Shown here in pieces: positions 3,643 through 64,000 of a stretch of 64,000 nucleotides of DNA. A program made the position numbers and the translations under genes. The notes beneath the pieces are model-generated. The model was not told where the DNA came from. It searched no databases and worked only from the letters and a program-made list of their open reading frames with translations. The stretch lies in the NCBI RefSeq assembly GCF_988242995.1, contig NZ_OZ547043.1. One strand, written 5' to 3'. Within the stretch, counting starts at the first letter, position 1. Every line of letters starts with the position of its first letter.

Positions 3643-3891
3643 AACAATCCCCATTGTTTTTTTGTGTTTGTGTGTTGCTTGAGCCAGGAAAATTCCTGGA
3701 ACTGAAAAACCTTATCAGCCATGTGGGTATGGGGAAAATGCAAGTATGTTTCTGGCTATGCGTTTTTTGCATAGCGGAAAAATTACGCTGTGTGGAAAAG
3801 GCTCTGCGCAGGATTGAGTTGCAGAAAATTCATAAACCAAGTGACAATGACATCAGTAAATAAAAACAGAAAATCCAGGGACGAAAACGAG

Positions 3892-4446
3892 ATGGCAAAG
3901 TACAACGAAAAAGAGCTGGCGGATACGAGCAAGTTTTTAAGTTTTGTCCTCCGACACAAACCGGAGGCGATTGGTATCGTACTGGACCGTGAAGGATGGG
4001 CGGATATCGATAAGCTCATACTTTGTGCCCAAAAAGCGGGCAAGCGGTTAACCCGTGCATTGCTGGATACTGTGGTTGCCACCAGCGATAAAAAGCGTTT
4101 TAGTTATTCCAGTGATGGTAGGTGCATCCGCGCGGTTCAGGGGCATTCGACTTCGCAGGTCGCTATTTCCTTTGCCGAAAAAACACCGCCACAGTTTCTC
4201 TACCACGGTACGGCAAGCCGTTTCCTTGACGAGATAAAAAAACAGGGGCTGATTGCAGGTGAGCGTCACTACGTACATCTCTCTGCTGATGAAGCAACGG
4301 CACGCAAAGTGGGAGCAAGACACGGATCGCCGGTTATTTTAACCGTCAAAGCACAGGAAATGGCGAAACGAGGCCTCCCTTTCTGGCAAGCGGAAAACGG
4401 GGTCTGGCTGACATCAACGGTTGCGGTTGAGTTTCTTGAGTGGTAA
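3892..4446 (+). CDS. kptA: RNA 2'-phosphotransferase KptA (Tpt1 family)
   Basis: ORF-track frame starts at GTG 3790, but the 184-aa product from ATG 3892 ([25 protein letters not shown]...) matches KptA; conserved Tpt1 HxSxD-like region ([15 protein letters not shown]). Confidence 0.85.
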
Positions 4447-18659: not shown

Positions 18660-18671
18660 AAAGGAATAAGG

Positions 18672-21600
18672 ATGACTACACGCTATTTTTCGTCACTTAT
18701 TGAACAATCGTTGTCTCGTTCAACTGAAGCAACGCTCAGTATCATGGGCGTTACAAACCCGCAGTTGCGTGAACATCTCGCGCAGCAAATGGGGGCTGAT
18801 TGTGGGAAACCGGGCTCATTCCTTGCTTCTCCGGTATTCCAGCAAATGTTTGGCTGGAAGGAGTCAAACCACACGATGCGCAGTCTGACGGAAGGCAACG
18901 CATTGTTGAGCAAAGCAGTGGTTGATTCACTGGATGATCAGAGTAATGGCCGGTACCGATTTGGTGCTGACTGGAAGCCTTTTACACACCAGTTAGCCAG
19001 TTGGAAAGCTTTGCTGGAAAAGAAACATTCAGTGGTGGTAACCAGTGGTACGGGTTCAGGTAAAACGGAATGTTTTATGGTACCGGTGCTGGAAGATCTT
19101 TACCGGGAACTGCATGAAAATGGCAACAATCCGTTGGTCGGTGTCCGAGCCCTTTTTCTCTATCCATTGAACGCCTTGATTAATTCACAGCGCGAGCGTC
19201 TGGATGCCTGGACGCGTGGTTTTGGTACTGGGATCCGCTACTGCTTGTATAACGGAAATACAGAAGAGCTCCACGCAAAAATGAAAACAGTGCAGGATAA
19301 TAGACCAAATGAAGTCTTATCCCGTGAAAAGATGCGTCTGGAGCCAGCCCCGATTCTGGTGACCAACGGCACGATGCTGGAATATATGATGGTTCGCCAG
19401 GTCGACGCCCCGATTATCCAGCAATCCAAAGCACAAAAATCACTACGCTGGATTGTACTGGATGAAGCGCATACCTATGTCGGGTCGCAGGCCGCTGAAC
19501 TGGCACTCCAGCTGCGTCGTGTGATGACAGCGTTTGGCGTGACGCCAGATGATGTGCGCTTTGTAGCGACCTCTGCGACCATTGCCTGCAGCGACGCCGA
19601 AAAGCAGCTGAAAAAATTTCTCTCTGAATTATCCGGTATCCCGCAGGAGCGCATCGATGTTCTGGACGGAAGTCGGGTGATTCCTGAACTGGAACCATCC
19701 AAAAACGTTTCTGTTCCGTTAGACGAAATAGAGCAAATACCTGATCTGGATCTAAAAGATAAAAATGATAATAAAATTAAAGGGATAAGCCCTGAGCGCT
19801 TTTATGCGCTTACGCACTCCCCCGAAGCGCGTTACATACGTGAAATGTTGGTTAGCCAACCCAATCCAATGAAACTGGATGAGATGACGCAGCGGTTAAA
19901 TGCGCTGACAAAACAGCATTACAGCCAGCAGGAAGTACTGCGTTGGATCGATGTCTGTTCAGGGACTCAACCTAATGCAAAGGATCCCGCATTTCTTAAA
20001 GTCAGGGCGCATATCTTCCAGCGTAATACCCAAGGAATATGGGCTTGTGTTGATAAAGATTGCAGATTAAAGCACGGTACACCGCTCGAAAAAGGCTGGC
20101 CCTTTGGCTATGTGTATGTGAACCAGCGACAAAATTGTGACTGTGGAAGCCCTGTATACGAAGTTGCATTCTGTAATGATTGTAATGAGCCTCATCTTCT
20201 GGCGCAGGACAAAAAGGGCAAACTTGTCCAATGGGAAAATAAAGGTGGCGATGAGTTCTCCTTGCAGGATGAAGTACCTGTTGAACATGACACTACAGAG
20301 GAAAAAGTCGAAAAAGAGAACGGTTTCCTGCCTCCGTTGATTATTGCCGCAGGAGAGACCAGCGAGACAGGCTATACCCTACAACGCCTCGACCACCAGA
20401 CGCGCCGTATTGGCGTTATTAACAATGACAGCATTCCGCTGATTATTAATGATGTTGAACAGGTTTGTAGCGCCAGTGGCTGTGGCTACAGAGGCATGAG
20501 TGGGAAACAGCCCTTCCGGCGTGCACTATTAGGTGGGCCATTTTACGTTACTAATATCGTGCCCACCGTTCTTGAGTATTGTCAGGACTTTACCAGTGAT
20601 GAAGGCAAAGAGGGCGTCGGACCAGATTCGTTGCCAGGGCGAGGACGTCGACTCATTACCTTTACGGACAGTCGACAAGGTACAGCTCGAATGGCGGTGC
20701 GTATGCAGCAAGAAGCAGAACGCAGTCTCTTACGCGGAAGCGTAGTCGAAATTCTGAGCTGGCATCAACGGACGCAAACGTCCACGGCGCCGAATGCCAA
20801 TGCCGATCTGGAAAAATTAGCGGCCAGGGCAAAGCAAGCCCGTGAGCAGGCAGAAGAATATCGAAGCTGGGGAATGCCAGACCAGGCGAAATTGTCACAA
20901 GCACAGGCTGAACAGCTTGAACAGGCTTATCAGGCTGCAACCGGTGGAAAAGCAGCAACTACCCTGGTATCCCGCACCTGGACAGAAATGGTTAACGAGC
21001 TTAAAGATAAAGCCGATATCCGTGGCCCGGTACTGAAATATAACCACTATTTGCAGCCTGAAGTGTTTAATAAAAACGGCGGGCCACTAAAGCTTTCGGA
21101 AATGTTGTTGTTCCGGGAATTCATGCGTCGCCCTAAACGGACTAACAGCCTGGAAACACAGGGGCTGGTTCAGGTTGGTTACCAGGGGCTGGAGAAAATA
21201 CATAAGAGCCCCTTGCACTGGCAGGAAAAAGGATTAACGCTGGATGACTGGCGCGATTTTCTCAAGGTTACGTTGGATCTTTATGTTCGCGAAAGCAACT
21301 TCACACAGCTGGATGATGAGCTGAAAAACTGGATTGGTAGCCGTTTTTCATCAAAATTCGTCCGTAACCCGGAATCAAAAGATCCTGAAGATAATCAGAA
21401 CAGACGCTGGCCTCAAATTCGTAATGGCAACGTATCCCATCGTTTAGCGAAGTTACTGATGCTGGGGGCTGGATTCAAAACCGTCAATACGGCGACTATT
21501 GATATTATCAATACATGGCTGAAAGAAGCATGGGCCCAACTTACCGGACCACTTGCAGTACTGAAACCCGATGGCAACCGTTTTTATTTACCGAAAGAGC

Positions 21601-24600
21601 ATATGACTTTTTCTTTAATCACGGATGCCTGGATTTGCCCGGTAACCAATAAAATCCTGGATACGGCTTTTAAAGGCTTAACCCCTTATCTGCCCACCCA
21701 TATTTCGTTCGAGCATCTTACCCAGGCGCAATATGACACTTTTGTCGCGCAGAAAGTCACCATGCCGGAAATCTGGAAGCTGGATCGTTCACAGGAAGAC
21801 TACGCAGAGGGTCTGGCAAAAGCACGAGACTGGGTCAACAATGATCCGCTGATCGCACAATTGCGGTCGGAAAACGTCTGGACAGACATCAACGATCGTG
21901 TAGTGGAAGGCGGTTTCTACTATCGCACTGCCGAGCACTCTGCCCAGCAGTCGTCAGAACGCCTGCAAAGCTATGAAAAGATGTTCAAGAACGGGCAACT
22001 AAATGTTCTCAACTGTTCCACCACCATGGAAATGGGGGTTGATATTGGGGGCATTACTGCGGTGGTAATGAACAACGTTCCGCCACATCCGGCCAACTAT
22101 TTACAGCGCGCCGGGCGAGCCGGGCGTAGTAAAGAATCACGCGCGATCTCTTATACCCTATGCAAAGGTAACCCACACGACCAGCAGGTTTTTGCCAACC
22201 CACTCTGGCCATTTGAAACCATGATCCCGGCACCCATGGTCGCGATGAACTCCGCCCGACTGGTGCAACGTCACGTCAATGCATTATTACTGTCTGACTT
22301 TTTATGTAACGTTATTGGCGAAACCGATAAAGAGAAAACCAGCCTCGATAGCCTCTGGTTTTTCGGTGAAGATGACGGGCAGTCAAAATGCGAACGCTTT
22401 AAAGTCTGGCTGGAACGCCCGGTTCTTGATATCGACATGGCGCTGGAACGGCTGGTGAAAGGTACGGCGTTGCATGGCGCAAGAGCCGAACATCTGCGGG
22501 ATAAAACAATCAATGCGATCACCTTCCTGCAACAGCGGTGGCTCTCCGTTTATCGCGATCTCGTGACCCAGGAGCGTGAGTCGCAGCCGCAAACGCCTTA
22601 TCGTAAGCGCATAGAGCTGGAGAAGAAACGGCACTGTGGCGAGTATCTGCTGCGCGATCTGGCTGCCAGAACCTTCCTGCCGGGATACGGTTTCCCGACA
22701 GATGTAGTGACGTTTGATAACTTCACGATGGAAGATTATATCCGCGAAAAATCGCAGAAAAGTCGTGATAAAAAGGACCGTGAAGATAACGTCTCCCGTT
22801 ATAAAGGATTACCTTCCCGTAACCTCGGTGTTGCCATTCGTGAATATGCACCGGGAGCAGAGATCATTCTTGATGGTCGTGTCTTCCGCTCTGCCGGTGT
22901 CTCACTGCACTGGCACAACATTAATGCTGATACCAATGAAGCCCAGCGTCTGGATTGCGCCTGGCGCTGTCACAAATGCGGGACCATTGGCTATGAAGAG
23001 GGGATGAGCAGTTCCGGGATGCTCTTTTGCTCCAACAGCGCCTGCGGCGAAAAAATAACCATGGATAATCGCCGTCAGGTGTTGCAGCCTGCCGGGTTTG
23101 TCACCGATGCACACGCTCCGGTAACGAACAATATTGAAACCATGAAATTCGTCCCGGTTGTCCCCGCGTGGGTCTTTGTTAAAGCAGAGCCTGTACCGTT
23201 GCCTAACCCGCTAATGGGTTATATGGCTTCTGGGGCTGATGGGCATGTTTTCCAGCAAAGTTTGGGGGAAGGTGGACACGGTTATGCATTGTGTCTGAGC
23301 TGTGGCCGTGCGGAGTCGATGCTGAATGAAAATGATGCACCGAAAAGTATGGAAGCTCACTATCCACCGCGTCCGGGTAAAGCGGACCGCGACAGCCAGA
23401 ATCATCGTCTGATTTGCCCCGGTTCGACGGCACTCATGAAGAACGTCACCCTGGGCGCACTGGCGCGCACCGATGTCTTTGAAATGGTTCTGCGCAAACC
23501 GCAAAACGGCGAGTATCTGCCAGATAACACAGAAGAGGGGCGGATTGTCGCTATGACTCTGGCGGTTGCTCTGCGTCAGGCGCTGGCAGGCGTTCTGGGT
23601 ATCTCCGCCGCAGAACTCGGCTATTCTGTACGTCCGGTCAGACTGGAGGATGGGCAATCGGTATTAGCCGTTCAGCTTTATGATGTGATCAGCGGTGGTG
23701 CTGGTTTTGCCTCCAGCGCACCGGTACATATTGAAGCTATATTGCAGGGAATGGTGAAACAGTTAGGCTGCCGCCATTGTGATACTGCATGCAGTGAATG
23801 TCTGCTTGATTCCCAGACTCGCCACGATCACGATTTGCTGGATCGCAAAGTGGCGCTGGCTTGGCTTGGCGATGACTTCACGTATTACATCGGTTTACCG
23901 GATGAAGAGACATTCTCGCTGCCGGATGCCCGCTACTGCCCTGGCGCTATTGGCGATACGATTCGCCGGGCGATTAACGAAGGCGCTGAAAAGCTCACCC
24001 TGTGGATGACTGGCGCGCCCAATGAGTGGGATTTATACGGCCGTCAGTTCCGCGCGGCTATTCAGAGCTATCGGCTAAAAGACAACGTCGAGGTCGATCT
24101 TGTTATTCCTGCGGGAGTGGATGACCCAGACCTGTTGCATGAACTATCGCAATTTACTGCGCTGGGTGTGCGGTTGTGCCATGTTGAGCAGGAGCTGCAA
24201 TTACCGATTGTTGCCCAGGTCACCTTTGCCGATCGCGTGATGACGCTGGCCTCTCGCAGTCAGCAGGCAACGATTCCGGGGCCGGAGTGGCACCTGAATG
24301 ACGAACTGGTGGTGCGTAGTCTCGGTTATCAAACGGTAGAACTGAACGAGTTTATTCTGCCCGCTAAAGCCGCCAACGCTGTCGAGCGGGTCAAAGACAT
24401 TCAGATCCACAAACAGTTGAATGGACCACTTTCGCAGTTTGGGCAACGCTTCTGGGACGTGCTGTTTAACGACCATGAAGAAGCGCAGTCACTGATGAAA
24501 AACACGCGAATTACCGGCGTTCACTATACCGATCGCTATCTGCAAAACCCGGTTGCGCTGGCGTTGTTGGGATCAATTCTGAAACCGCTAAAAACAAAGC

Positions 24601-25016
24601 TGACCGATGGCGCTGAAGTGGCGCTGGATACGCTGTTTAAAGATAAAGATCGCCCCGGTAACCGGCCTTTCCATGACTGGATGAGCATAGCGGATTTTCA
24701 GGATTTCGCTGATCAGTGGTTTGCTGCTGCGCTGGGCAGGCCGATAGAACTGACGGTGTTCGATTCGCCGCGCGATATCCCTCACCATCGTAAACTGACG
24801 GTGACTTTTGAGGATGGTCAGGTATTGAAGATCCGCTTCGATCAGGGGATGGGCTACTGGCGCATCAACTTTGCATCGCAATGGCATTACTTTGATTTCC
24901 GCGATGACGTTTCTTTCCAGTTAGTCAAAATGGCTCAGGCCTGCAAGGAAGGGAATGTGGCCAACAGCGAAGAGAGCTGGGCAACGGATGTGCTGGTGGA
25001 GGTGATCGCCTCCTGA
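18672..25016 (+). CDS. yjiV: Giant SF2 (DEAH-type) helicase with Cys-ribbon modules (2114 aa); intact counterpart of the K-12 yjiV pseudogene; candidate DruE-like defence helicase
   Basis: AAGGAATAAGG Shine-Dalgarno before ATG 18672; Walker [10 protein letters not shown] (aa 124-132, nt 19041-19067); motif II VLDEAH (aa 262-267); motif [10 protein letters not shown] (aa 1145-1152); Cys clusters near nt 20046-20184 and CxxC...CxxC near nt 23292-23812. Confidence 0.85.
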
Positions 25017-25072: not shown

Positions 25073-26119
25073 TTATTTGAGATATTCATCGAAAATGGCG
25101 AGTAATTCTTGATGTATACACGGCCATTCCTGACCTAAATTGACGGTACACAGGCCAATATCGAAGCCATTAATTTTATAACGATGTTTCACTGCGGTGT
25201 CTACGTGGGGGTATATTAATAAACCCCCTATGTTTTCGCCATTTTCAGGTTTTAACGACCATAAGTAATTCATCAGTTGATAAAGATTTTGAGAGTGAAA
25301 TTTTTCTGAGCCCATTCGTCGTGAAAAAATGCTCTTATAGTATTTGGCGTCAACGATAAGTATTTTTTCTGATGAGCGAATGGTGATGTCAGTTTCCATT
25401 CGAGGTAACAAATTAAGTGACTGATCCGATATGCTCGATGCATCCCATTTTAAATAAGAGCGGGTTGTATTTGCAGACGTTAATTCACGGCGGCAAAATT
25501 CAAAAAGAAACTTTTGATAAAGTAATGACATCTCTTTTTCGTTTCTTTCAAAATCATAGAAACGGTAGTGTCCTTTGTTTTGACCTGGGATAGAATTATT
25601 GACGATGAACTTACAGACGCTGATAACAAATTTATAATAACGCGTGTTCTTTCCGCCATTCAGATAGCTGAAATGCTGCGGAGTTAAATGAAGAGTGCTA
25701 ATGCCCGGTAATTTTCTATAAAGTGAACGAGCTTCATCTCTGATGGTTGAGTTTAACTTTTCATGCTTAATTAACATGGCTAATGTGCTTTTTATAATTC
25801 GGTTAGCCAGCGTATCTTCATTAAGCAGATCAAAAGTACTGACGGTTTTCCCATGATTAAGATGGAAGCCGCGTATTGTTTTAGCAAACTCTATTCGCCC
25901 TTTGATGCCAGGAATGATCTCGGTATTAGGATTGTAATCAAGCTCAAGCCCTCGGCGTGAAAGCTGTAAAACCCCTTTATTTAATACATACCCCAGGATA
26001 TCAAGAAGATTGTTACCGGGAATGGCTTCAAGGTCGGCCTGCTTAATTTCCTGTAAATAACCCCATGCATAGGTAAGCATGTAATAGATATTACGGACAG
26101 GTATCACGGGCTGTTCCAC
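25073..26119 (-). CDS. mcrC: McrC, nuclease subunit of the McrBC modified-cytosine restriction system
   Basis: 348-aa ORF; its start overlaps the mcrB stop; AT-rich codon usage typical of mcrBC; matches McrC length. Confidence 0.9.
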   Translation of the reverse strand: MEQPVIPVRNIYYMLTYAWGYLQEIKQADLEAIPGNNLLDILGYVLNKGVLQLSRRGLELDYNPNTEIIPGIKGRIEFAKTIRGFHLNHGKTVSTFDLLNEDTLANRIIKSTLAMLIKHEKLNSTIRDEARSLYRKLPGISTLHLTPQHFSYLNGGKNTRYYKFVISVCKFIVNNSIPGQNKGHYRFYDFERNEKEMSLLYQKFLFEFCRRELTSANTTRSYLKWDASSISDQSLNLLPRMETDITIRSSEKILIVDAKYYKSIFSRRMGSEKFHSQNLYQLMNYLWSLKPENGENIGGLLIYPHVDTAVKHRYKINGFDIGLCTVNLGQEWPCIHQELLAIFDEYLK

Positions 26120-27498
26120 TATGAGTCACCTAATAATTTGTCGGCCCATATCTGTTGTTTATAGGGGTCATCAAAGAAATATTCTTCGAGTAAAGGGGCG
26201 ATATCCGTCATCACAATTTCCTTAAGCCATTGCGTATCAGGAGAGGTGCCATCTTCCAACCCGGAGCAGAAGTAACTATGCCCAATGCGGAATCCTTTCC
26301 CAAGGATAGTGGCCTCTTTGCTGATTTCCTGGTTTAACTCATTCATTTTTTGGCATAAAGACTCAACAAATGAAGGTTCTGCTTTTTTATTCAGTAAAAA
26401 ATTACGGAACTGTGGTGTATCAAAACCAGGCTCAATATCTATGAAAGAAAATCGTCTGCGCAGGGCATAATCAACAACGGCCAGAGAGCGATCGGCAGTA
26501 TTCATTAAACCGATAATATAAACATTCTCCGGGACATAGAATCGTTCTTCATCGTTTTCGGAATAGGTTAAGGGAACAGACCAGTTTTCACCTCGTTTAT
26601 CATGTTCCATTAACATCATCACTTCGCCAAATACTTTACTGAGATTGGCACGATTGATTTCATCTATAATAAAAACATACTTTTTCTCTGGCTGCTCTTT
26701 AGCTTGCTGACAAAAATTGTAAAATATGCCGTCTTTACGTCGGAAGCCGACGCCATTCGGACGATAGCCCTGTATAAAATCCTCATAGCTATAAGATTGA
26801 TGGAACTGAACCATATTGACGCGTTGCGGAGCCTTTTCTCCTGTCAGCAGGTAAGCCAGACGGCGTGCAACAAAGGTTTTTCCAACGCCGGGCGGCCCCT
26901 GGAGGATAATATTTTTTTTGATGGTTAATCGTTTGAGTATCGTCTCTATCGTGGTTTCAGGGATAAACAAATCATTTAACGCATCTTCCAGACAGTATGA
27001 TTCAGTTTTTGACATAGGTGGAATAACACTCTTGCCAGAATTAAATATTAATTTATAGTCGTTGATTATGTTGTCCAGCATGGAGGCAAACCGGGTATAA
27101 TCAAGACCCTGTGAGACTTTTTGGGAACAGGCGTAATAGGACTGTCCGTATTTTTTAGGATAAACACCTGAAGTTGTCTGGAAATACTCTGCGATTGTTT
27201 TAGGTATGTCTGAAGAGAACTGCCATTGGGCATGTGGTTTATTCGTGTCGCTTATACCATAAGCCAAAACCAACTCATCAAAATCTTTATAATAGAGAAT
27301 AACGGGATATATACCGTTAGAAACTTCCTGACCTTCTCCCAGAAATGCAAACCAGGGAATAGATGTAAAATTGCCATAACCGAAACTCACTTTTACTCGC
27401 AGGTTACGGTAAGACGTTGGATAATCTTTGGTGGATTGTGAACTTTTTTGCTGTGCTTGCTCAATAAATTTTTCAATCCAGGCTTGAATTGATTCCAT
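26119..27498 (-). CDS. mcrB: McrB, GTP-binding AAA+ DNA-binding subunit of McrBC
   Basis: Start at ATG 27498 (MESIQAWIEKF..., AGGAAGG Shine-Dalgarno) gives 459 aa; the ORF-track Met six codons upstream is the alternative; Walker A GPPGVGKT; in-frame internal Met162 (codon 27013-27015) matches the known McrB-s short form. Confidence 0.9.
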   Translation of the reverse strand: MESIQAWIEKFIEQAQQKSSQSTKDYPTSYRNLRVKVSFGYGNFTSIPWFAFLGEGQEVSNGIYPVILYYKDFDELVLAYGISDTNKPHAQWQFSSDIPKTIAEYFQTTSGVYPKKYGQSYYACSQKVSQGLDYTRFASMLDNIINDYKLIFNSGKSVIPPMSKTESYCLEDALNDLFIPETTIETILKRLTIKKNIILQGPPGVGKTFVARRLAYLLTGEKAPQRVNMVQFHQSYSYEDFIQGYRPNGVGFRRKDGIFYNFCQQAKEQPEKKYVFIIDEINRANLSKVFGEVMMLMEHDKRGENWSVPLTYSENDEERFYVPENVYIIGLMNTADRSLAVVDYALRRRFSFIDIEPGFDTPQFRNFLLNKKAEPSFVESLCQKMNELNQEISKEATILGKGFRIGHSYFCSGLEDGTSPDTQWLKEIVMTDIAPLLEEYFFDDPYKQQIWADKLLGDS

Positions 27499-27659
27499 AA
27501 GATGTGCCTTCCTCATTGCTAAGCCTCTATTATCGCTTTCGCAACGTACTGAAACAATAGATTTTTACTGCAAAAGGTGGTGGGTAAATATTTACTGAGG
27601 GGGAAAGTTTCTATTGAGTCAGTGGAAGGCTCCCGGTGGTTAACCGGGAGTAAACGCTG

Positions 27660-28001
27660 TTACGCGACTTTCTGTTTACCGGCAATCACTCCAATAAACG
27701 CCTGCACCTGCTTTTGTTTACGTGCCGACAGCTTGCACACCTGGCGCAGCGACTGCATCAGTTCGCTCTCTTCGACGGCGAGTGGTTGGGCGGTGAGGAC
27801 AATACAGCCTTCCATCACTTTGACATCTACCGCCGTGCCGGTGGTAAAACCGGCGGCTTCCAGCCACTGACCTTTCAGGGTGATGGCGGGAATACGGCTG
27901 TAATCCGGGTAGCGACTCGCATAACTCACGGTTAATTGACGGTTATTTGCCGGGGAGACTTCTGCTTCGAACGGTTGTGCAATAGAATGCATGTCAGTCA
28001 T
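27660..28001 (-). CDS. symE: SymE, SOS-induced toxin-like protein (AbrB-fold; YjiW)
   Basis: 113-aa ORF ([52 protein letters not shown]...); LexA-box-like site about 78 nt upstream. Confidence 0.85.
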
Positions 28002-28071
28002 GATTACTATTCCTTAGAAATAGGGATTGTGATTAGCGGTGCGGGTGTGTTGGCGCACATCCGCACCGCGC
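27995..28071 (+). ncRNA. symR: SymR (RyjC) cis-antisense sRNA opposite the symE 5' end; coordinates approximate
   Basis: Candidate -10 TAGAAT at 27983-27988 on the + strand inside the symE 5' coding region; transcript would cover the symE start codon and Shine-Dalgarno and end at a GC-rich hairpin (about 28035-28071); ends not verifiable here. Confidence 0.4.
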
Positions 28072-28078
28072 TAAATAC

Positions 28079-28094
28079 CTGGATATATCATCAG
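28079..28094 (-). promoter_or_regulatory. LexA (SOS) box-like operator upstream of symE
   Basis: CTG-N10-CAG palindromic 16-mer (bottom strand CTGATGATATATCCAG) about 78 nt upstream of the symE start; consistent with the known SOS control of symE. Confidence 0.6.
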
Positions 28095-28185
28095 TAAATA
28101 CCGGGAAAGTCCAGCTAAAAATAGAATAAAATGGGCAATTTCCGGAATGATTTAAATATATTTATGTGAGTTATGATTGGCGAGA

Positions 28186-28215
28186 AATAATAAAAAGCGC
28201 ACCGGAAAGGTGCGC
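28186..28215 (-). terminator. Rho-independent terminator downstream of hsdS
   Basis: Stem GCGCACC / GGTGCGC with GGAAA loop at 28197-28215, followed on the minus strand by a T-rich tract (complement of 28186-28196), 14 nt after the hsdS stop. Confidence 0.7.
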
Positions 28216-28228
28216 CAGAAAATAATGA

Positions 28229-29653
28229 TCAGAACTTTTTACGCGAGGCTTTTTTACCCCCGCTGGCTGCGCGCTCAGCTTTGATTTTCTCCAGCAACGC
28301 AGCGGCGCTGTTTTCTCCGCTGATTAAATCCGGGTTTTCGGCCCGCCACTGGGCGGTGAGTTCACCACGGAACGCTTTTGCCAGGATGGATTGCGTCAGG
28401 TTGTTGACGCGGGCTAAGGCGTTGTTGACCTGTTTTTCTATGGAGTCGGCGTAGGCGAAGAGTTGCTCGACGCGGCGAACGATTTCGTGTTGTTCTTCTA
28501 TAGACGGTAAAGGGACAAATGCATTTTTAAGATCTTTTAAATTTAATGTCTTTCTGGCGACCTCCTTAGATGACTGAACTAGCCATGTTTGCATAACTGG
28601 TGAACTTAACCATATATGGAGAAACATAGGAACAATAATCTTATATTCAGGAGATATTCTGGCAACGGCACGAGCGATATTAACATTTATATCTTCTCTA
28701 ACAATACCTATTCTACCTATAGCCCCAACAATTGTTACAAGAATGTCATTCTTTCGTACTTTGGAACGCTTATATTGTAAATCTATTTCCTTTGAAATTT
28801 TACGAAGATGATTTAAATCTACTTCACCATCGTTAATATCACAAACACGAATTAATTCTATACCGTCTTTTATATCATCTCCAGGTTGCACCACACCATA
28901 ACATAATGGTCTTTGTGTATTGATAATGTTATTCAAAATTGTTTCACTCCAGTCTTCTGGAATAAGGATTTTGTAGTTATCTAATTCAACTTTTTTTGTT
29001 ATAAAATCTTTATCTTCTTTGGTCAACCTACCAGTTACTGCCGCAGCCAACACCGCCTGACGAAAACGTTTCAGGATTTGTGGGATTTGCTCAAGGCGTG
29101 CTTTGGTGCTGTCTACCTGCGCCAGCAGCGTATCGAGTTTTTCAGCGATGATTTTTTGCTCGGCAAGTGGTGGCAACGGAAGTAGGGTATCTTGAAGTGT
29201 CCTGGAAGAAAGATGCTTTACAGTAACCGAGGACGTATTTGCATTGATTGCGGATAAATATCCTGGTAAGGCGTGATAGAAAAACCTTTTATTGTATTTG
29301 TCTTCCTGAACTTCAATTTTACATACTCGTTGATTTAACAGAGCTGGTTCTGAGCACCATATAGTTGCATTAAAATCACCATCCATTCCCACGATTAAGT
29401 CTTCGGGATATACCCAATATCCCTCAGGAATTTGACCCGAGTAATAAGTCGATGTATTACCTTTTAGAACATCACGAATTCTAATTAATGGTACACCATC
29501 TTTACGATTATTAAATTCTGACGACTTAAAAGCAAAACCGTTTGTGATGTTTGCTACGGAATCCATTGAAATACGTAACCAGCTATCATGGATTGAAAGT
29601 AACCCATTGATATTTTGCTCAATTAATTCTTTTGATGTTGAGTTGAAACTCAT
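28229..29653 (-). CDS. hsdS: Type I restriction-modification specificity subunit HsdS (474-aa allele)
   Basis: 474-aa ORF; GC-richer conserved N-terminal, central and C-terminal segments separated by two very AT-rich blocks (target-recognition domains); 4-nt overlap with hsdM. Confidence 0.9.
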   Translation of the reverse strand: MSFNSTSKELIEQNINGLLSIHDSWLRISMDSVANITNGFAFKSSEFNNRKDGVPLIRIRDVLKGNTSTYYSGQIPEGYWVYPEDLIVGMDGDFNATIWCSEPALLNQRVCKIEVQEDKYNKRFFYHALPGYLSAINANTSSVTVKHLSSRTLQDTLLPLPPLAEQKIIAEKLDTLLAQVDSTKARLEQIPQILKRFRQAVLAAAVTGRLTKEDKDFITKKVELDNYKILIPEDWSETILNNIINTQRPLCYGVVQPGDDIKDGIELIRVCDINDGEVDLNHLRKISKEIDLQYKRSKVRKNDILVTIVGAIGRIGIVREDINVNIARAVARISPEYKIIVPMFLHIWLSSPVMQTWLVQSSKEVARKTLNLKDLKNAFVPLPSIEEQHEIVRRVEQLFAYADSIEKQVNNALARVNNLTQSILAKAFRGELTAQWRAENPDLISGENSAAALLEKIKAERAASGGKKASRKKF

Positions 29654-31239
29654 TCCTTCACCCCACCAAACGCTTCTTCCAGCAACTGACGCTGTGCATC
29701 CGCCTCATCGCTCGCTCCCAGTTCACGTATCAGCGCATCCAGTTCGCCCAGCGCCTGTACCAGCTCGCCCATCGCTTCTGCCGCTAATACATCCGGCTCC
29801 GGCAGGTTGTCGGCATCAATGCTATCTTTATCTTTCAGCCAGGAGATATCCAGCGAATCGGATTTCGTGGTGCGGATCCACTCGCGGGTGAACTTACGCC
29901 AGCGGCTGGTAGCCAGGTGCTGGTCGGTGTTTTTGTTCTCTTCGCTGTCGGCAACTTCCGTCTCTTCGGCGTTAAAACTCCATTCCCCTTCGCTACGCGG
30001 GCTTAAACCGTGCGGATCTTCGCCATACACGCGCTCAAACGGCTGCAGATGCTCGTCGGTAAACGGCGTGCGTTTGCCGAAGCTCGGCATATTGGTACGC
30101 AGGTCGTACACCCACACATCATCGGTACAGTTCTTATCCTGATGCGGGTTCGCCACCGTCCCTTTGGTAAAGAACAGCACGTTCGCCTTCACGCCCTGCG
30201 CGTAAAAAATACCGGTCGGCAGACGCAGAATAGTGTGCAGATGACACTTATCCATCAGGTCACGACGGATGTCCGTGCCTTTGCCGCCTTCAAACAGCAC
30301 GTTATCCGGCACCACCACCGCCGCACGACCGCCGGGGTGCAGTGTTTCGATAATATGCTGCATAAAGCACAATTGTTTGTTGCTGGTCGGGTGAACAAAG
30401 GTACGGGTAATGTTGGTGCCTGCGGCGCTACCAAACGGCGGGTTAGTGGCGACAATATGCGCCTTCGGCAGGTTTTCACCGTCGCTACCCAGGGTGTTGC
30501 CCAGACGGATTGCGCCACCGTGGTCGAGGTTGCCTTCGATATCGTGCAGCAGGCAGTTCATTAGCGCCAGACGACGGGTGCCGGGTACCAGTTCGAGGCC
30601 GATAAACGCGCGGTGGATCTGGAAATCCTGCGTGTCGCCATCAAGGTCGTCCAGATCGTTAGTCTGCGACTTAACGTAGCGGTCAGCTTCAATCAAAAAG
30701 CCCGCTGTACCTGCTGCCGGGTCCTGCACCACTTCACGCGGCTGCGGTTTCAGCAGATGAATAATGGTTTTAATCAGCGGACGTGGGGTGAAGTACTGGC
30801 CCGCGCCAGACTTGGTTTCGTTGGCGTTTTTCTGCAACAGCCCTTCGTACATATCGCCGAAGTCATCGCGTGACTTACCGTGCGCGCCGTTGTACCAGTC
30901 CAGTGAATCCATATTGCTGACCAGTTCGGTCAACTGTTTCGGCTGGGTAATGGTGGTGTTGACGTTCTGGAACACCGCCTGCACCAGCTTTTGATTGTCG
31001 GCGCCCAGATGCACCAGCAGGTTACGGTAGAACTGCAACTGCTCCTGGCCGATGCGGGATTTCAGGTCATCCCAGCGGTAGCCTTCCGGCAGGTATTCCG
31101 CTTCCTGTCCGGTTTCTTTACACATTTTCAAAAACAGCAGCGAGGCGAGTTCATTGACGTAGTTTTGATAGGAAACGCCGCCATCGCGCAGGTTGTCGCA
31201 CAGTTTCCACAGCTTCGCGACCAGATCGTTATTGTTCAT
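29650..31239 (-). CDS. hsdM: Type I R-M N6-adenine DNA methyltransferase HsdM
   Basis: 529-aa ORF; catalytic NPPF motif (VATNPPFGSAAG); AdoMet-binding region. Confidence 0.95.
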   Translation of the reverse strand: MNNNDLVAKLWKLCDNLRDGGVSYQNYVNELASLLFLKMCKETGQEAEYLPEGYRWDDLKSRIGQEQLQFYRNLLVHLGADNQKLVQAVFQNVNTTITQPKQLTELVSNMDSLDWYNGAHGKSRDDFGDMYEGLLQKNANETKSGAGQYFTPRPLIKTIIHLLKPQPREVVQDPAAGTAGFLIEADRYVKSQTNDLDDLDGDTQDFQIHRAFIGLELVPGTRRLALMNCLLHDIEGNLDHGGAIRLGNTLGSDGENLPKAHIVATNPPFGSAAGTNITRTFVHPTSNKQLCFMQHIIETLHPGGRAAVVVPDNVLFEGGKGTDIRRDLMDKCHLHTILRLPTGIFYAQGVKANVLFFTKGTVANPHQDKNCTDDVWVYDLRTNMPSFGKRTPFTDEHLQPFERVYGEDPHGLSPRSEGEWSFNAEETEVADSEENKNTDQHLATSRWRKFTREWIRTTKSDSLDISWLKDKDSIDADNLPEPDVLAAEAMGELVQALGELDALIRELGASDEADAQRQLLEEAFGGVKE

Positions 31240-31439
31240 TGTAAGTTCCGTAAATTAAGCAGCGGCCCGCATGTTCGGGGCCGCAGAAGAAGAAATTGCC
31301 GAGGGTAATATACACAAAATCATTCAGATTGCATCAAGGCGGCAAGTGAGCGAATCCCCGGGAGCGTACAGAAGTACTTGACCGGGGTAAACGAGCGCAG
31401 CCAACGCAGAGGCAGCCTGAAGGATGAAGTGTATACGTG

Positions 31440-34400
31440 TCAGGCCAGCTCGTCCCAAATGTAATCGCTGAATTTATCGAGCAGGTTGTCGAGATTATCG
31501 TCAAAGGTTCTTTGCAGCATCGCCTTCCCGCCGCGACGGTGGAAGTTGCCGGTTTTGAAGACATCGTCGTCGAGCACCACTTTCTCTTTCAGCGCCTGCG
31601 CTAAACGATCGAGCCAGCTTAATTGCTCGCTGCTCCAGTCATTTTCGCCCTTAATGCGCGTCAGCGCGTGATCGACACGTTCCTCAAACGGTTTCAGCGC
31701 ATCGCCCACCGCAGCGCGGCGAATATGTCCAATCAGCCGGGCGGCGATATCTTCATTGCGCGTCTCTTGCCATGCTTTGCGCAGGGAAGATTCCTCAAAG
31801 TGCTGGCGGTCAAACCACTCCTGTAGCTCGACCAGCCCTTTACGGGTGAGATCGCGCGGGCGATTAATCACCGCCTGCAATGCCGGCTGTGCATTCGGGG
31901 AACGTTGCACCAGCGAGTCAAAGGCTTCGAGGAAATCCTGCGGCGTGTCGTAATCACCGTACAGCGATTTTACGCTCACCACTTCATCGTCGATATCGAG
32001 GAAGATCGGCGCATCATTCAGGTTGTTGATGTCGGTTTTCAGCTTTTCCAGACGGGCGATAAAGCCAGGTAGTTTGTTAAAGACTTCGGCGCTCCAGTGC
32101 GGCCCTTTTTCCCGCAGGCGCGAGGCGAAGCCGTTAAAGTTAACCCCCGCCGCGTCCTGGCATAGCTCATCCAGACGACGCACCTGTTTGTCTATCGTTT
32201 CGCTGCGGTCACGGTTAAACGTGGCCAGGCCGATGATGCGCTGGAGCTTCGCCACCAGTTGTTCATGGCTGTGCTCGGCAAAACTGCGGCCATCCGCTTC
32301 GGTGATTTTATAGGTTTCTGAATCGGTAATTTCGTTGACCAGCGTTTGCAGTTCCACCTTCGGACGCACCACCACCGGACGCATGGTGTCGACGCTCTCC
32401 AGCGTGCTGTAGATATCGACACAGTCGAAAATCTTAAAGCTGGTTTTATTCACCTCCGGGCATAAGCGCGTGGCGCGCCCTTTCATCTGCTCGTACAGAA
32501 TACGGCTGCGTACCTTGCGCAGGAACACGATATTACAGATCGACGGAATATCGACGCCGGTCGTCAGCAGGTCGACGGTGACCACGATATTGGGCAGCCG
32601 CTCTTTATTGAAGCGGGTGATCATGGTCTGCACTTTTCGCGCGTCTTTATCGGCATCACCGGTGATCTTGATGATCGCGTCGTGCTCCAGTTGTGGATAC
32701 TTTTTCTTGAACGCGGTACGCAGCTCTTCCACCACCATATCGGCATGGGCATTGGTGACGCAGAAGACCAGCGTTTTTTGTGACCCGGTCGGGTCAAGGT
32801 AGTTGGTGAGTTCGTTACAGACGGCGCGGTTAAACGCCGGGATCACCAGGCCACGGTTAAAGTCGGCGACCTCAAAATCCTGATCGTCTTCCAGGGTGTC
32901 GTTGATCACTTCCCCCTGCGGGCTGATGCGCTCAACCTGCTCGCCTTTGGAGAGATAAACCCCTTCCTGGGCGTTGCGGGTGGTGATCTGAATCGGCGGA
33001 TCCTGGTCGATCAGAAAACCGTCGATAACCGCGGTACGGTAGGTGTAACGGTAAACCGGCTCGCCGAAAATCTGCACCGTATGCAGAGCCGGGGTGGCGG
33101 TGAGAGCGATTTTTACCGCATCGAAGTGATCGAGAATACGACGGTAGGCAGAGACGTAATCCAGCTGACTGCGGAACTGTAGTTCGCCTTCGGTCTGCTC
33201 TTTATCGAGAATGTAGCCGCGATGCGCTTCATCGACGACGATACAGTCGTAACGGGCTACCGGCATCGGTTCATCCGATTGCAGGGTGCGTTTCACCAGC
33301 GACTGTACGGTGGCAACGTGAATTTTGGTGCTGTCTTCAGGGAATTTATCCGTCAGCCCTTTAATGTCGAAAATGCTGTTAAAGGTGTCGCCGTTAATAC
33401 GCGTATCTTCAAACGCGCCCAGCGCCTGTTCGCCAAGAGAACGGCGGTCGACAAGGAAGAGAATGCGTTTAAAACGCTGGGACTGGATCAGGCGGAACAT
33501 CATGGCAATTGCCGTACGGGTTTTACCGGTACCGGTTGCCATCGCCAGCAGGATCTCTTGTTGCCCCTTGACGATTGCCTTTTCAACCGCGCGGACGGCA
33601 TCTTCCTGATAATAACGCAGGCCCAGCTCACTCATGCCAGGGTTATCGGCAAACCACTGATTCTGTTTTTGCGGTTCGCTGCCGAGCATTTCCAGCAGCT
33701 CTTCCGGGCGGTGCCACTCGGGTAAGGCTTTCGACATATTGCGGGTATCACGCACGTCGCGATACCAGATGCCGCTTTTAATCTTCATCGCTGCGCGGTA
33801 TTCGCGCCCGTTGGTTGAGTAGCAGAAGGGGATTTTAAACCGTTGTTGGCCGCTGGTGTCCTGCCAGCTGGTTTCATACTCTGGCACCGCTTCATGCACT
33901 TCATCTGGTGAATAGTGCTCAAGCAAGGTTTCCCGCAGGAAGCCATTATCGAAACATTTACTGTAGCGATACGACTCATTGAGCTTGCCGGGAACGTCGA
34001 TATTTTTACGTTTCGCTTCTACCACCGCGATGGGTTTGAGACCGACAAACAGCACATAATCCGCAAAGCCCTGATTACCCGTTTCATCTTTCCCGGTCGG
34101 CCATTCGGCAATGGCTTTATTGACGCCGGGTTCCGGGCGCGCGCCTTTGGAGAAGCGCAGGGTTTTGCTATCGGCCTGCCAGCCTGCTTTACGCAGTTGC
34201 GCGTCAATCAGGAAGCGGCTCTCTTCTTCGCTAAGATTGAGTGTACGCTTGATGGCCTGATCGGTAATTTCTTTGTGGTAAGCCTTACGTTCCTGTTCGG
34301 TCTGCTTGGCCAGTTCCGCGTTCTTCTCGGCGAGCTGTGCTTCCAGTGCAGCAAGGCGAGCCTGGGTTTGCGCTTCGGTTTCCTGCTGCTTGCCTTCCAG

Positions 34401-34952
34401 AATGGCGATATAGCCGTTCAGGGCAACCAGCTTCTGCTGTTGTGCTTCGACTTCTGCCTGACTCTGCGCTTTTTCTCGCACCTGCTGTTCAAGCTGTTGT
34501 TTTAGCGTCAGCACTTCCTGGTGATAGAGGTTTTCACCACGTTCCGGCAACACAAACACCGGCACCGGGAAGTCATAATCTTTAGTGACCAGACGGTAGT
34601 ACCAGACAGCCAGGCGAAACCCGAGTCGCAGGCACATCTGGGCATCGTCGAGATCGTTATGATATTCGTGCACCGCCTGGTTACCAATGCGGCGTAATTT
34701 GTGGAATACAGAGAGAATGTTGTCATCAACGAAGGCGATTTTGCCGAGTTCGCGCAGGAGATCGTGTTGATTCTCACAAGGGGGGATGTTGAGTAACAGA
34801 CCAAGATGTTTCGCTGTGGCTTCGCCAAACATACGCATTTTAATCAGCGTCGTGTTGGGATCATCCGGGTAGTTATTTTCCGCCGCACAGGCGATGGCAT
34901 AGGTAAAGTCGTTGACGCCCTTCAGGAATTCAAAATTGGATTTATTCATCAT
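31440..34952 (-). CDS. hsdR: Type I R-M restriction endonuclease/translocase HsdR
   Basis: 1170-aa ORF; SF2 motifs (Walker A MATGTGKT, DEAH VVDEAHR); N-terminal nuclease region. Confidence 0.95.
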   Translation of the reverse strand: MMNKSNFEFLKGVNDFTYAIACAAENNYPDDPNTTLIKMRMFGEATAKHLGLLLNIPPCENQHDLLRELGKIAFVDDNILSVFHKLRRIGNQAVHEYHNDLDDAQMCLRLGFRLAVWYYRLVTKDYDFPVPVFVLPERGENLYHQEVLTLKQQLEQQVREKAQSQAEVEAQQQKLVALNGYIAILEGKQQETEAQTQARLAALEAQLAEKNAELAKQTEQERKAYHKEITDQAIKRTLNLSEEESRFLIDAQLRKAGWQADSKTLRFSKGARPEPGVNKAIAEWPTGKDETGNQGFADYVLFVGLKPIAVVEAKRKNIDVPGKLNESYRYSKCFDNGFLRETLLEHYSPDEVHEAVPEYETSWQDTSGQQRFKIPFCYSTNGREYRAAMKIKSGIWYRDVRDTRNMSKALPEWHRPEELLEMLGSEPQKQNQWFADNPGMSELGLRYYQEDAVRAVEKAIVKGQQEILLAMATGTGKTRTAIAMMFRLIQSQRFKRILFLVDRRSLGEQALGAFEDTRINGDTFNSIFDIKGLTDKFPEDSTKIHVATVQSLVKRTLQSDEPMPVARYDCIVVDEAHRGYILDKEQTEGELQFRSQLDYVSAYRRILDHFDAVKIALTATPALHTVQIFGEPVYRYTYRTAVIDGFLIDQDPPIQITTRNAQEGVYLSKGEQVERISPQGEVINDTLEDDQDFEVADFNRGLVIPAFNRAVCNELTNYLDPTGSQKTLVFCVTNAHADMVVEELRTAFKKKYPQLEHDAIIKITGDADKDARKVQTMITRFNKERLPNIVVTVDLLTTGVDIPSICNIVFLRKVRSRILYEQMKGRATRLCPEVNKTSFKIFDCVDIYSTLESVDTMRPVVVRPKVELQTLVNEITDSETYKITEADGRSFAEHSHEQLVAKLQRIIGLATFNRDRSETIDKQVRRLDELCQDAAGVNFNGFASRLREKGPHWSAEVFNKLPGFIARLEKLKTDINNLNDAPIFLDIDDEVVSVKSLYGDYDTPQDFLEAFDSLVQRSPNAQPALQAVINRPRDLTRKGLVELQEWFDRQHFEESSLRKAWQETRNEDIAARLIGHIRRAAVGDALKPFEERVDHALTRIKGENDWSSEQLSWLDRLAQALKEKVVLDDDVFKTGNFHRRGGKAMLQRTFDDNLDNLLDKFSDYIWDELA

Positions 34953-35139
34953 TGTTATTAATCCATTGCTGTGTGGGCCTGTCCAAATATTTAAGGCCCA
35001 TAACGCCTTATCTTAGCTTTCTGTACCTTTCCGGGCAATGACCACGGTCACAGCAACTGACTCATTTCTAACGTGTTCGTCTATTTTGGTAGTGTTATAG
35101 TAGCCGAAAAACATCTACCTGATTCTGCAAGGATGTACT

Positions 35140-36054
35140 ATGACGGTTCCTACCTATGACAAATTTATTGAACCTGTTCTGCGTTATCTGGCGACAAAAC
35201 CGGAAGGTGCAGCCGCGCGTGATGTTCATGAGGCTGCCGCGGATGCATTAGGACTGGATGACAGCCAGCGAGCGAAAGTCATTACCAGCGGACAACTTGT
35301 TTATAAAAATCGTGCAGGCTGGGCGCATGACCGTTTAAAACGTGCCGGGTTGTCGCAAAGTTTGTCGCGTGGCAAATGGTGCCTGACTCCTGCGGGTTTT
35401 GACTGGGTTGCGTCTCATCCCCAGCCAATGACGGAGCAGGAGACGAACCATCTGGCCTTCGATTTTGTGAATGTCAAACTTAAGTCACGGCCGGATGCCG
35501 TCGATTTAGATCCGAAAGCCGACTCTCCCGATCATGAAGAACTTGCAAAGAGCAGCCCGGACGATCGGTTAGATCAGGCGCTAAAAGAGCTTCGTGATGC
35601 GGTGGCTGATGAGGTTCTGGAAAACTTATTGCAGGTTTCTCCTTCGCGCTTTGAAGTCATTGTTCTGGATGTTTTGCATCGCCTGGGGTATGGCGGCCAC
35701 CGTGATGATTTGCAGCGTGTTGGCGGTACTGGAGATGGTGGCATCGATGGTGTGATATCGCTTGATAAACTTGGCCTGGAGAAAGTTTATGTTCAGGCAA
35801 AACGTTGGCAGAACACTGTAGGCAGGCCAGAATTACAGGCATTTTACGGCGCACTGGCTGGGCAAAAGGCGAAACGTGGGGTGTTTATTACCACTTCTGG
35901 ATTTACGTCTCAGGCGCGTGACTTTGCTCAATCCGTCGAGGGTATGGTGTTGGTTGATGGGGAACGCCTGGTGCACTTAATGATCGAAAACGAAGTAGGG
36001 GTTTCTTCACGTTTGTTGAAGGTGCCGAAACTGGATATGGACTATTTTGAGTGA
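35140..36054 (+). CDS. mrr: Mrr, type IV methylated-DNA restriction endonuclease
   Basis: 304-aa ORF; N-terminal winged-helix and C-terminal Mrr catalytic region; synteny next to hsdR. Confidence 0.9.
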   Translation: MTVPTYDKFIEPVLRYLATKPEGAAARDVHEAAADALGLDDSQRAKVITSGQLVYKNRAGWAHDRLKRAGLSQSLSRGKWCLTPAGFDWVASHPQPMTEQETNHLAFDFVNVKLKSRPDAVDLDPKADSPDHEELAKSSPDDRLDQALKELRDAVADEVLENLLQVSPSRFEVIVLDVLHRLGYGGHRDDLQRVGGTGDGGIDGVISLDKLGLEKVYVQAKRWQNTVGRPELQAFYGALAGQKAKRGVFITTSGFTSQARDFAQSVEGMVLVDGERLVHLMIENEVGVSSRLLKVPKLDMDYFE

Positions 36055-61178: not shown

Positions 61179-62413
<1,235 letters not shown>

Positions 62414-63031
62414 AACTCGCCCTTTGTCATAGACGTGCTGCGTATTGTTCAGATAATGAGAATCCATTTGTATCATGAAGCACGGTTGTTTTGCGGTAGG
62501 TTAAGATCAAAATTGCGCTGATTAATCCTGGTTATCGGGACAAGCTCGGTGATAAAAAGCGAATTATCTCTCGCCGCAAACAAACTATCACATGAATATT
62601 ATCACTATAATGAATTTATTGTTTGGCCTTTACGAATCAGGATAATAGATAACCGGGCACGTTTTTTAATGTTAACAAGTTAAAACCATCAGATTTCATT
62701 GAATAAATATTGGTTGTGTGATTTTTCATTCTGCGGGAAGGGATATCATTTAATTATAAATTAAATGAATGTGATTTCTGTTTTTCATTAAGTATTCCTA
62801 ACAACTTAATGTAGATATTTTAAATGTCTCCAGGCTATTTCACCAGGTTATCATTTGATGCTAACCTTCTGACACATGCAGTGGAGTTGTTGTGCAGCAG
62901 GAGTATGCTGATATGAAAGTGAATGCTAAGGATAATTTATTCGCTTAATCTATTAATTTGCTGGAAACATTTAAGGAATGAATATCCTGAATAAACCATC
63001 ATGATTTTTAGACAGTGGATGTGGAGGAAAT

Positions 63032-63757
63032 ATGTTGCCAGGATGCTGCAAAAATGGAATTGTTATCAGTAAAATACCTGTTATGCAAGCAGGGTTAAAA
63101 GAGGTCATGAGGACTCACTTCCCTGAATATGAAATAATATCCAGCGCCTCTGCGGAGGACCTTACCTTATTACAATTACGTCGTTCCGGATTAGTCATTG
63201 CTGATTTAGCCGGTGAAAGTGAAGATCCTCGTTCTGTTTGTGAACATTATTATTCTTTAATCTCACAATATCGGGAAATTCACTGGGTTTTCATGGTGTC
63301 ACGCTCCTGGTATTCCCAGGCAGTAGAATTGCTCATGTGCCCTACGGCGACGTTATTGTCTGATGTTGAACCCATTGAGAATCTGGTCAAGACCGTACGT
63401 TCCGGCAATACGCACGCAGAGCGTATCAGCGCCATGCTGACCTCTCCGGCAATGAATGAAACTCATGATTTTAGCTATCGCTCCGTCATTCTCACTCTTT
63501 CAGAGCGCAAGGTACTGCGGCTATTAGGTAAAGGATGGGGCATCAACCAGATAGCTTCGTTGCTTAAGAAAAGTAATAAAACTATCAGCGCCCAAAAAAA
63601 CAGTGCGATGCGTCGACTGGCAATTCACAGCAACGCTGAAATGTATGCATGGATAAATAGCGCGCAGGGTGCAAGAGAACTTAACTTGCCTTCTGTTTAT
63701 GGAGATGCCGCAGAATGGAACACAGCCGAATTAAGAAGAGAAATGTCGCACTCATAG
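63032..63757 (+). CDS. yjjQ: LuxR-family transcriptional regulator YjjQ
   Basis: 241-aa ORF; C-terminal LuxR/FixJ HTH ([41 protein letters not shown]); long AT-rich leader. Confidence 0.8.
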
Positions 63758-64000
63758 AAAAATGCGTCATGAGCAGTATCGGTATTGAGAGTTTATTCAG
63801 AAAGTTTGCGGGTAACCCTTATAAGCTCCATACCTATACCAGTCAGGAGTCATTTCAGGATGCCATGTCGCGGATCTCATTTGCGGCGGTCATTTTTTCT
63901 TTTTCTGCCATGAGAAGTGAGCGCAGAGAGGGATTATCTTGCCTGACTGAACTGGCGATTAAGTTTCCGCGTACCCGGCGTTTAGTTATTGCGGATGATG
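63715..64000 (+). CDS. bglJ: LuxR-family regulator BglJ, 5' portion (runs off the window end)
   Basis: ATG at 63715 in a different frame from yjjQ, overlapping its last 43 nt; translation [41 protein letters not shown]... stays open to the window end. Confidence 0.8.

Follow-up and report, generated by a model that had tools for sequence, protein, structure and literature searches.

Divergent spacer and overlapping bglJ start at the yjjP/yjjQ-bglJ locus of a non-K-12 Escherichia coli

Two genes encoding LuxR-type regulators, yjjQ and bglJ, lie at the end of the stretch of DNA analysed here (64,000 nucleotides, hereafter the window), where they follow a long AT-rich region and overlap one another in different reading frames. 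This arrangement raises the questions of what the AT-rich region represents, whether bglJ genuinely starts within yjjQ and, if it does, at which level the expression of the two genes is coupled.

The locus and its AT-rich divergent spacer

The last 2.4 kb of the window was identified as the E. coli yjjB-yjjP / yjjQ-bglJ locus (Table 1), with 98.8% identity to K-12 MG1655 over this length, and megablast matched the locus in 5424 of 5426 complete E. coli genomes, each annotated with yjjP, yjjQ and bglJ. The locus, its silencing and its operon structure are already known and were published in 2008. The first-pass annotation had placed the bglJ ATG 43 nt inside the 3' end of yjjQ in another frame, and these coordinates proved exact, the RefSeq K-12 annotation showing identical geometry (yjjQ 2933-3658 and bglJ 3616-4293 in locus L001, with a 43-nt overlap). 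In full, bglJ encodes 225 aa, the first 95 codons of which are inside the window.

Assignment of both proteins to the LuxR-type regulators was borne out by Pfam, where the GerE helix-turn-helix (HTH) domain (PF00196; cut-off 23.5 bits) was detected above the cut-off at residues 153-206 of YjjQ (32.5 bits, E = 6.6e-8) and residues 152-203 of BglJ (47.5 bits). YjjQ orthologues were 62-98% identical. The closest solved relative of BglJ, by sequence profile and by Foldseek, was its partner RcsB, and the invariant BglJ residue Ser62 aligned with the RcsB phospho-acceptor Asp56; because Ser62 replaces the phospho-acceptor Asp, BglJ was regarded as an atypical, non-phosphorylated receiver, consistent with the reported phosphorylation-independent activity of BglJ (PMC5025477). 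The N-terminal domains of YjjQ and BglJ showed no detectable similarity to each other in BLASTP or hhalign comparisons, and an alignment of the two paralogues was discarded as support for the bglJ start since only the HTH domains align.

Table 1. Coordinates of the features of the yjjP/yjjQ-bglJ locus, numbered from the first nucleotide of the window.
Feature	Position	Strand	Description
yjjP	61643..62413	-	ORF, 256 aa; ThrE-family exporter subunit (Pfam ThrE, E = 3.7e-69; RefSeq annotation); divergent neighbour
Divergent yjjP/yjjQ regulatory spacer	62414..63031		618 bp, AT-rich, GC 0.343
Most AT-rich core	62600..62830		GC 0.273; likely H-NS nucleation zone, as suggested by composition and literature
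IS1A target site in natural isolate LZSFT34	62625..62634		Target duplication; apart from the insertion, LZSFT34 matches the window at 100% identity
Conserved upstream block TAAGTA..CTAA..TAATnTAGATATTTTAAnTGT	62789..62827	+	Nearly invariant columns in 20-species alignment; candidate regulator-binding site
MarA box gcatcaaatgataac	62847..62861	-	Exact match to marbox of ETEC H10407; sequence conserved mainly within Escherichia
Candidate sigma-70 promoter of yjjQ-bglJ, CTGATA-17-GATAAT	62908..62936	+	Consensus scan; predicted, not mapped; -10 within conserved island
yjjQ Shine-Dalgarno GGAGG	63023..63027	+	TGGAG invariant and next G nearly so in 20 species; 4-5 nt from ATG
yjjQ	63032..63757	+	ORF, 241 aa, from ATG 63032; LuxR/GerE-type HTH regulator
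bglJ ribosome-binding site TATGGAGA	63698..63705	+	Core GGAG 63701-63704; within yjjQ codons Y223-G224-D225; invariant in 25 genomes
bglJ	63715..64000	+	ATG 63715-63717; LuxR/GerE-type partner of RcsB; gene runs past window end
Overlap of bglJ 5' end and yjjQ 3' end	63715..63757	+	43 nt, out of frame
yjjQ stop TAG	63755..63757	+	Formed by BglJ codons I14-E15 (A-TA G-AA)
Internal Met19 codon of bglJ	63769..63771	+	Invariant; 11 nt after yjjQ stop; alternative non-overlapping start, rejected

The start codon of yjjP, on the minus strand, ends at 62413 and so forms the left edge of the spacer. A longer yjjP start at 62476, giving a 277-aa ORF, was considered and rejected. This extension was not conserved, being interrupted by in-frame stops and indels in several Citrobacter species as well as in Escherichia sp. 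E1V33; because other species break the extension but keep MQTEQ, the short start was taken as correct. The spacer would measure 555 bp (62477-63031) if yjjP used the long start. The abstract of the 2008 description of the operon is said to speak of a '555-bp intergenic region' and to put H-NS in the middle of the spacer, with the promoters towards either end.

The description of the DNA before yjjQ as about 600 bp of AT-rich sequence held on both counts, since the spacer is 618 bp long with a GC content of 0.343 against 0.509 for the whole window; 0.8% of all 618-bp segments were equally AT-rich, and the others were all located in a variable restriction/defence island. The further term 'tract-rich' was correct in absolute terms (42 A-tracts per kb in the spacer vs 19 per kb in the window) but did not hold beyond composition, as the 26 A-tracts observed compared with 21.7 +/- 3.4 in shuffled sequences (p = 0.13); enrichment of W-runs in the spacer was likewise not significant beyond composition. 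Allowing up to two mismatches, the published 10-bp H-NS motif of high affinity, TCGATAAATT, had two weak hits and no enrichment. The spacer was present in 5423 of the 5426 complete E. coli genomes, and a yjjP/yjjQ spacer of 440-700 bp with a GC content of 0.33-0.41 was conserved in Escherichia, Citrobacter and Salmonella enterica subsp. arizonae.

Published work agrees with the proposal that the region belongs to the H-NS-silenced promoter type. The title of Stratmann et al. 2008 names H-NS as the repressor and LeuO as the activator of a yjjQ-bglJ operon, a conclusion repeated in PMC5025477, PMC3950696 and PMC2646131; papers citing that study report that the divergent yjjP gene is also H-NS-repressed, and genomic SELEX identified an H-NS site together with an RpoD holoenzyme site in the yjjP/yjjQ spacer (PMC3946193). 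In this literature, H-NS is described as coating the 618-bp spacer with its divergent yjjP and yjjQ-bglJ promoters and silencing both units under laboratory conditions, and silencing as being lifted by LeuO or by insertions that break the AT-rich tract. During evolution in the mouse gut, IS1, IS2 and IS5 repeatedly inserted at -111, -185 and -256 relative to the yjjP ATG, and these insertions raised yjjP expression and were adaptive (PMC5094792); the IS1A target site of the natural isolate LZSFT34 falls in the same zone. Another isolate carried an IS1-associated deletion extending from the 5' end of yjjP into bglJ. Disruptions of the spacer were rare, with at least 80% of the spacer intact in 5410 of 5423 genomes, a figure that is a bound rather than a full count of IS insertions.

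The term 'leader', applied to the same region, fared less well, and a divergent promoter/regulatory spacer is the description we prefer. Our consensus scan located a candidate sigma-70 promoter at the same site (62908-62936) as the yjjQ-bglJ promoter CTGATA-17-GATAAT predicted from RpoD genomic SELEX (PMC3946193), and when the 260 bp in front of yjjQ were aligned across 20 species, the -10-like GATAAT fell within the island of strongest conservation, AAGGATAAnnAATTC. The marbox listed in Table 1 lies under a MarA ChIP-seq peak in the yjjP/yjjQ spacer of ETEC H10407 (PMC5684230). A transcribed long 5' leader of yjjQ, with regulation at the RNA level through a riboswitch, sRNA target or attenuator, would fit a region that is long and partly conserved, and 'leader' was the word chosen in the earlier annotation; however, the promoter candidates and the conserved -10-like island lie just 95-125 bp from the yjjQ ATG, a search of 62200-64000 gave no Rfam match at E <= 1, and the divergent yjjP promoter must also be accommodated in the spacer. 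In addition, another group took the segment -73..+1, counted from the yjjQ ATG, to be the promoter of yjjQ, placing Ptet there to drive the operon and overexpress BglJ (PMC9678765), and yjjP was the gene scored as affected by the IS insertions 360-500 bp upstream. Because promoter candidates are found near the ATG, the yjjP promoter shares the spacer and no Rfam family was matched, the region was interpreted as a divergent regulatory spacer, and a long leader appears extremely improbable.

Comparative and structural evidence for the bglJ start

The bglJ start was analysed in a comparative set of 25 genomes from four genera, with one genome per species, in which the syntenic yjjQ-bglJ pair was present in Escherichia spp., E. 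albertii, about 20 Citrobacter species, S. arizonae and Intestinirhabdus. Escherichia has an overlap of 43 nt, Citrobacter and Intestinirhabdus have one of 40 nt, and that of S. arizonae spans 52 nt. Two in-frame ATG codons, at 63715 and at Met19, were kept in all 25 orthologues, so that a start at 63769 (Met19) has to be weighed, in which case the genes would be separate and the annotated 43 nt would reflect an ORF called too long. Long overlaps between genes on the same strand are often annotation errors, and the curated NCBIfam equivalog for BglJ (207 positions, 383 bits) aligned only to residues 19-225, that is, it begins at Met19.

The sequence in front of each candidate start argues for 63715 instead. 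No Shine-Dalgarno sequence was found before 63769, whereas the arrangement TATGGAGA-N9-ATG was invariant, the yjjQ frame reading it as Y223-G224 and E228-W229. The corresponding yjjQ codons, TAT-GGA and GAA-TGG, showed zero synonymous variation across the 25 genomes; the 13 yjjQ codons before them, including 10 for invariant residues, each varied at the third position (0.4-1.3 bits). The Shine-Dalgarno and AUG at 63701-63717 are thus frozen at yjjQ synonymous sites, which in these alignments is direct evidence that the Shine-Dalgarno sequence and start codon of bglJ are selected at the level of the RNA.

The stretch between the two ATG codons evolved as protein-coding sequence in the bglJ frame. 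For the nine codons scored of the 18 preceding Met19 (R9 to C17), per-site entropy at the three bglJ codon positions was 0.22, 0.00 and 0.75, a coding signature which persisted in the 11 nt past the yjjQ stop, a stretch that is coding in no other frame, and seven upstream BglJ residues (N10, V11, A12, L13, E15, K16 and C17) were invariant. In an AlphaFold2 model derived from the aligned orthologues, BglJ adopted a (beta-alpha)5 receiver-like fold with strand beta-1 formed by residues 9-14, residues 1-20 having a pLDDT of only 61-66, and RcsB aligned with the model over its full length (Foldseek E = 4.5e-8). On this model, initiation at Met19 would remove the central strand of the fold. The BglJ-RcsB sequence profile had an offset of +5, and extrapolation of this offset to the N-terminal segment of BglJ, which was thereby matched to RcsB NVIIADDHP, placed Met19 opposite RcsB Ile14, where helix 1 begins. 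The invariance of Met19, which by itself would favour a start there, can be attributed to this equivalence with RcsB Ile14, a structural reason. The comparative and structural evidence taken together supports ATG 63715, overlapping yjjQ, as the true bglJ start, and initiation at Met19 in its place is very improbable; Met19 may nevertheless serve as a minor internal start.

The yjjQ stop is formed by BglJ codons I14-E15, and in S. arizonae, where these codons are GTC GAA, the TAG is lost and YjjQ is 4 codons longer, ending in a TGA that abuts Met19. The BglJ frame therefore dictates where YjjQ ends. The YjjQ tail was variable after W229, and both this variable tail and the position of the stop are taken as passive consequences of the coding sequence for the BglJ N-terminus.

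Transcriptional and translational coupling of yjjQ and bglJ

The overlap had been taken to imply coupled expression of the two regulators, a claim that stands for transcription and falls short for translation. The two genes lie on the same strand with no intergenic gap, their synteny is conserved in four genera, and no promoter-like or terminator-like site was found on the plus strand inside yjjQ (63032-63757), in agreement with the co-transcription described in the literature. Translational coupling, in contrast, need not be invoked, since bglJ possesses an invariant Shine-Dalgarno sequence of its own in an unstructured context. Folding of the RNA revealed no masking hairpin at the bglJ initiation region, whose predicted folding was weaker than that of shuffled sequences (z = +1.41 over 131 nt and +1.63 over 66 nt), and the weak, absent or sequestered downstream ribosome-binding site associated with obligate coupling was not a feature of bglJ.

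A reading in which the overlap enforces translational coupling, with BglJ made only or mainly through translation of yjjQ, either by unmasking of the bglJ start or by termination and reinitiation 40 nt upstream, has some points in its favour: the overlap and relative frame were conserved in four genera, and the two proteins are co-encoded paralogous regulators. Against it, the bglJ Shine-Dalgarno sequence is strong as well as its own and invariant, and an initiation region less structured than its shuffled counterparts leaves nothing to unmask. Back-scanning over 40 nt after termination is inefficient, and insertion of mini-Tn10 upstream of bglJ is enough to make BglJ constitutive. When LeuO activates the operon in its native form, little functional BglJ results (PMC5025477), a hint of limits after transcription that would suit obligate coupling. 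On balance, we consider enforced translational coupling unlikely. The same shortage of BglJ for target activation under LeuO (PMC5025477) could also be explained if the overlap set the ratio of the two proteins, with ribosomes on the YjjQ tail transiently occluding the bglJ Shine-Dalgarno sequence and AUG and so capping BglJ relative to YjjQ even in the unsilenced state or, as a variant, with Met19 acting as a minor start for a BglJ isoform lacking beta-1 that titrates RcsB; this proposal, in either form, we regard as improbable.

The reading that we consider very probable as a whole combines a silenced divergent spacer, a single mRNA, a bglJ start at 63715 and independent initiation. The literature describes one shared mRNA carrying yjjQ and bglJ. 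The bglJ ribosome-binding site (UAUGGAGA, followed by 9 nt and AUG) is embedded in the last conserved yjjQ codons, in RNA predicted to be unstructured, and from these two features we infer that most BglJ arises from ribosomes initiating independently on the common mRNA. Coupling would then operate at the level of transcription, and ribosomes finishing yjjQ might at most modulate initiation at bglJ.

Significance and comparison with known systems

Among the loci under the control of BglJ-RcsB and YjjQ are bgl, leuO, flhDC and capsule genes, and both the silencing of the operon and the balance between YjjQ and BglJ bear on lifestyle switches of E. coli and on virulence in APEC. The additions made here are modest, comprising comparative and structural support for the overlapping bglJ start and the constraint that the bglJ ribosome-binding site places on yjjQ synonymous sites. 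Confirmation of the start is useful because the curated NCBI family model begins at Met19.

The pair resembles genuine overlapping genes in that the overlapping start and its ribosome-binding site were conserved and the extension evolved as coding sequence. Like canonical translationally coupled pairs (ATGA or TAATG, overlaps of 1-4 nt), yjjQ and bglJ overlap on the same strand within one operon; unlike them, they share 43 nt, and bglJ has a strong Shine-Dalgarno sequence of its own in unstructured RNA, the opposite of the features of obligate coupling. BglJ shares a GerE HTH and a receiver-like domain with the auxiliary FixJ/NarL-type regulators of RcsB (RcsA, BglJ, MatA, GadE), and departs from FixJ/NarL-type receivers with a phospho-acceptor Asp in carrying Ser at that position. 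Among H-NS-silenced, LeuO-antagonised systems, bgl, leuO and the cas operon likewise have an AT-rich regulatory region, are silent in the laboratory and are activated by LeuO or IS insertion, whereas the silenced unit here encodes two regulators and is divergent to a second H-NS-repressed gene, yjjP. The closest system is the K-12 yjjQ-bglJ operon itself (Stratmann, Madhusudan & Schnetz 2008, J Bacteriol 190:926; Venkatesh 2010; Salscheider 2014), with the same locus, gene order, 618-bp spacer and 43-nt overlap. Compared with K-12, the window represents a strain variant, a non-K-12 E. coli with an hpa cluster and Druantia, in which the spacer differs by a few SNPs, including position 63003, where G in place of the K-12 A changes a -10-like CATAAT to CATGAT.

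Anti-phage genes and strain identity

Two large ORFs matched the DruH3 and DruE3 models of PADLOC at 1830 and 2692 bits, respectively; together they make up a full Druantia type III anti-phage system, which has inserted into the variable region. At the 5' edge of this system lies an island (about 14.7-15.8 kb) with a GC of 0.30, where the window is at its most AT-rich. The mcrC/mcrB, hsdS/M/R and mrr genes (approximately 25073-36054) make up an immigration-control region, within which the remaining AT-rich islands are found (about 25.2 kb and 28.4-29.1 kb). The yjjP-yjjQ spacer of strain Res13-Lact-PEB08-01 is identical to that of the window, and the two strains differ across about 14.5-37 kb. 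The presence of the hpa cluster indicates that the strain from which the window derives is not K-12.

Coordinates and strand of the features described in the text
Feature	Position	Strand	Remark
DruH3 and DruE3 ORFs	window 15321-25016	+	1112 aa and 2114 aa; PADLOC matches
mcrC/mcrB	window 25073-27516	-	immigration-control region
hsdS/M/R	window 28229-34952	-	immigration-control region
mrr	window 35140-36054	+	immigration-control region
hpa cluster	window about 39.5-50 kb		after the immigration-control region
Terminator-like hairpin followed by T-run	window 63866-63897	+	within the bglJ coding sequence, codons ~51-61
Codon for BglJ residue 62	L001 (K-12 RefSeq annotation) 3799-3801		beyond the window

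The yjjP-yjjQ spacer and a possible yjjQ-proximal promoter

At window positions 63000-63005 the sequence reads CATGAT, compared with CATAAT in K-12, Escherichia sp. E1V33 and E. whittamii; the latter hexamer, lying 26-31 nt 5' of the yjjQ ATG, agrees with the -10 consensus at five of six positions, and the difference is a polymorphism within a candidate proximal promoter. An alternative, longer yjjP ORF of 277 aa, starting at 62476 and adding the stretch 62414-62476 (- strand), is open in E. coli, whereas in other species stops or indels interrupt it; were yjjP to begin there, the spacer would measure 555 bp. The Stratmann 2008 abstract reportedly gives a spacer figure of 555 bp.

The spacer of the natural isolate LZSFT34 carries an IS1A (window 62625-62634; 2536-3302 of its locus, L002), located in the zone of adaptive IS insertions known from mouse-gut evolution experiments. 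In isolate PS3Tanimalfeces2, an IS1-associated deletion has removed the 5' end of yjjP, the spacer, yjjQ and the 5' end of bglJ.

Integrity of yjjQ and bglJ, and features of BglJ

In nature, yjjQ can be lost while bglJ is kept. A premature stop cuts yjjQ to 145 codons in E. coli SCPM-O-B-8794, and C. amalonaticus AUH_CA_2023_1 has an intact bglJ and a disrupted yjjQ. Two contig ends of the E. albertii type strain each hold part of bglJ. The BglJ fragment in the 'Streptomyces sp. DH24' assembly, 99% identical to E. coli and found on a 436-bp contig of 1x coverage, is almost certainly E. coli contamination.

The curated BglJ equivalog model NF008548 (NCBIfam) has Met19 (window 63769-63771) as its first position and thus omits 18 conserved N-terminal residues, which are modelled as forming strand beta-1. 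The terminator-like hairpin within bglJ is probably a chance match, because its T-run encodes VIFSF. In the alignment with RcsB, residue 62 of BglJ falls opposite the phospho-acceptor Asp56; all 23 BglJ orthologues have Ser here, and the receiver domain of BglJ is therefore degenerate.
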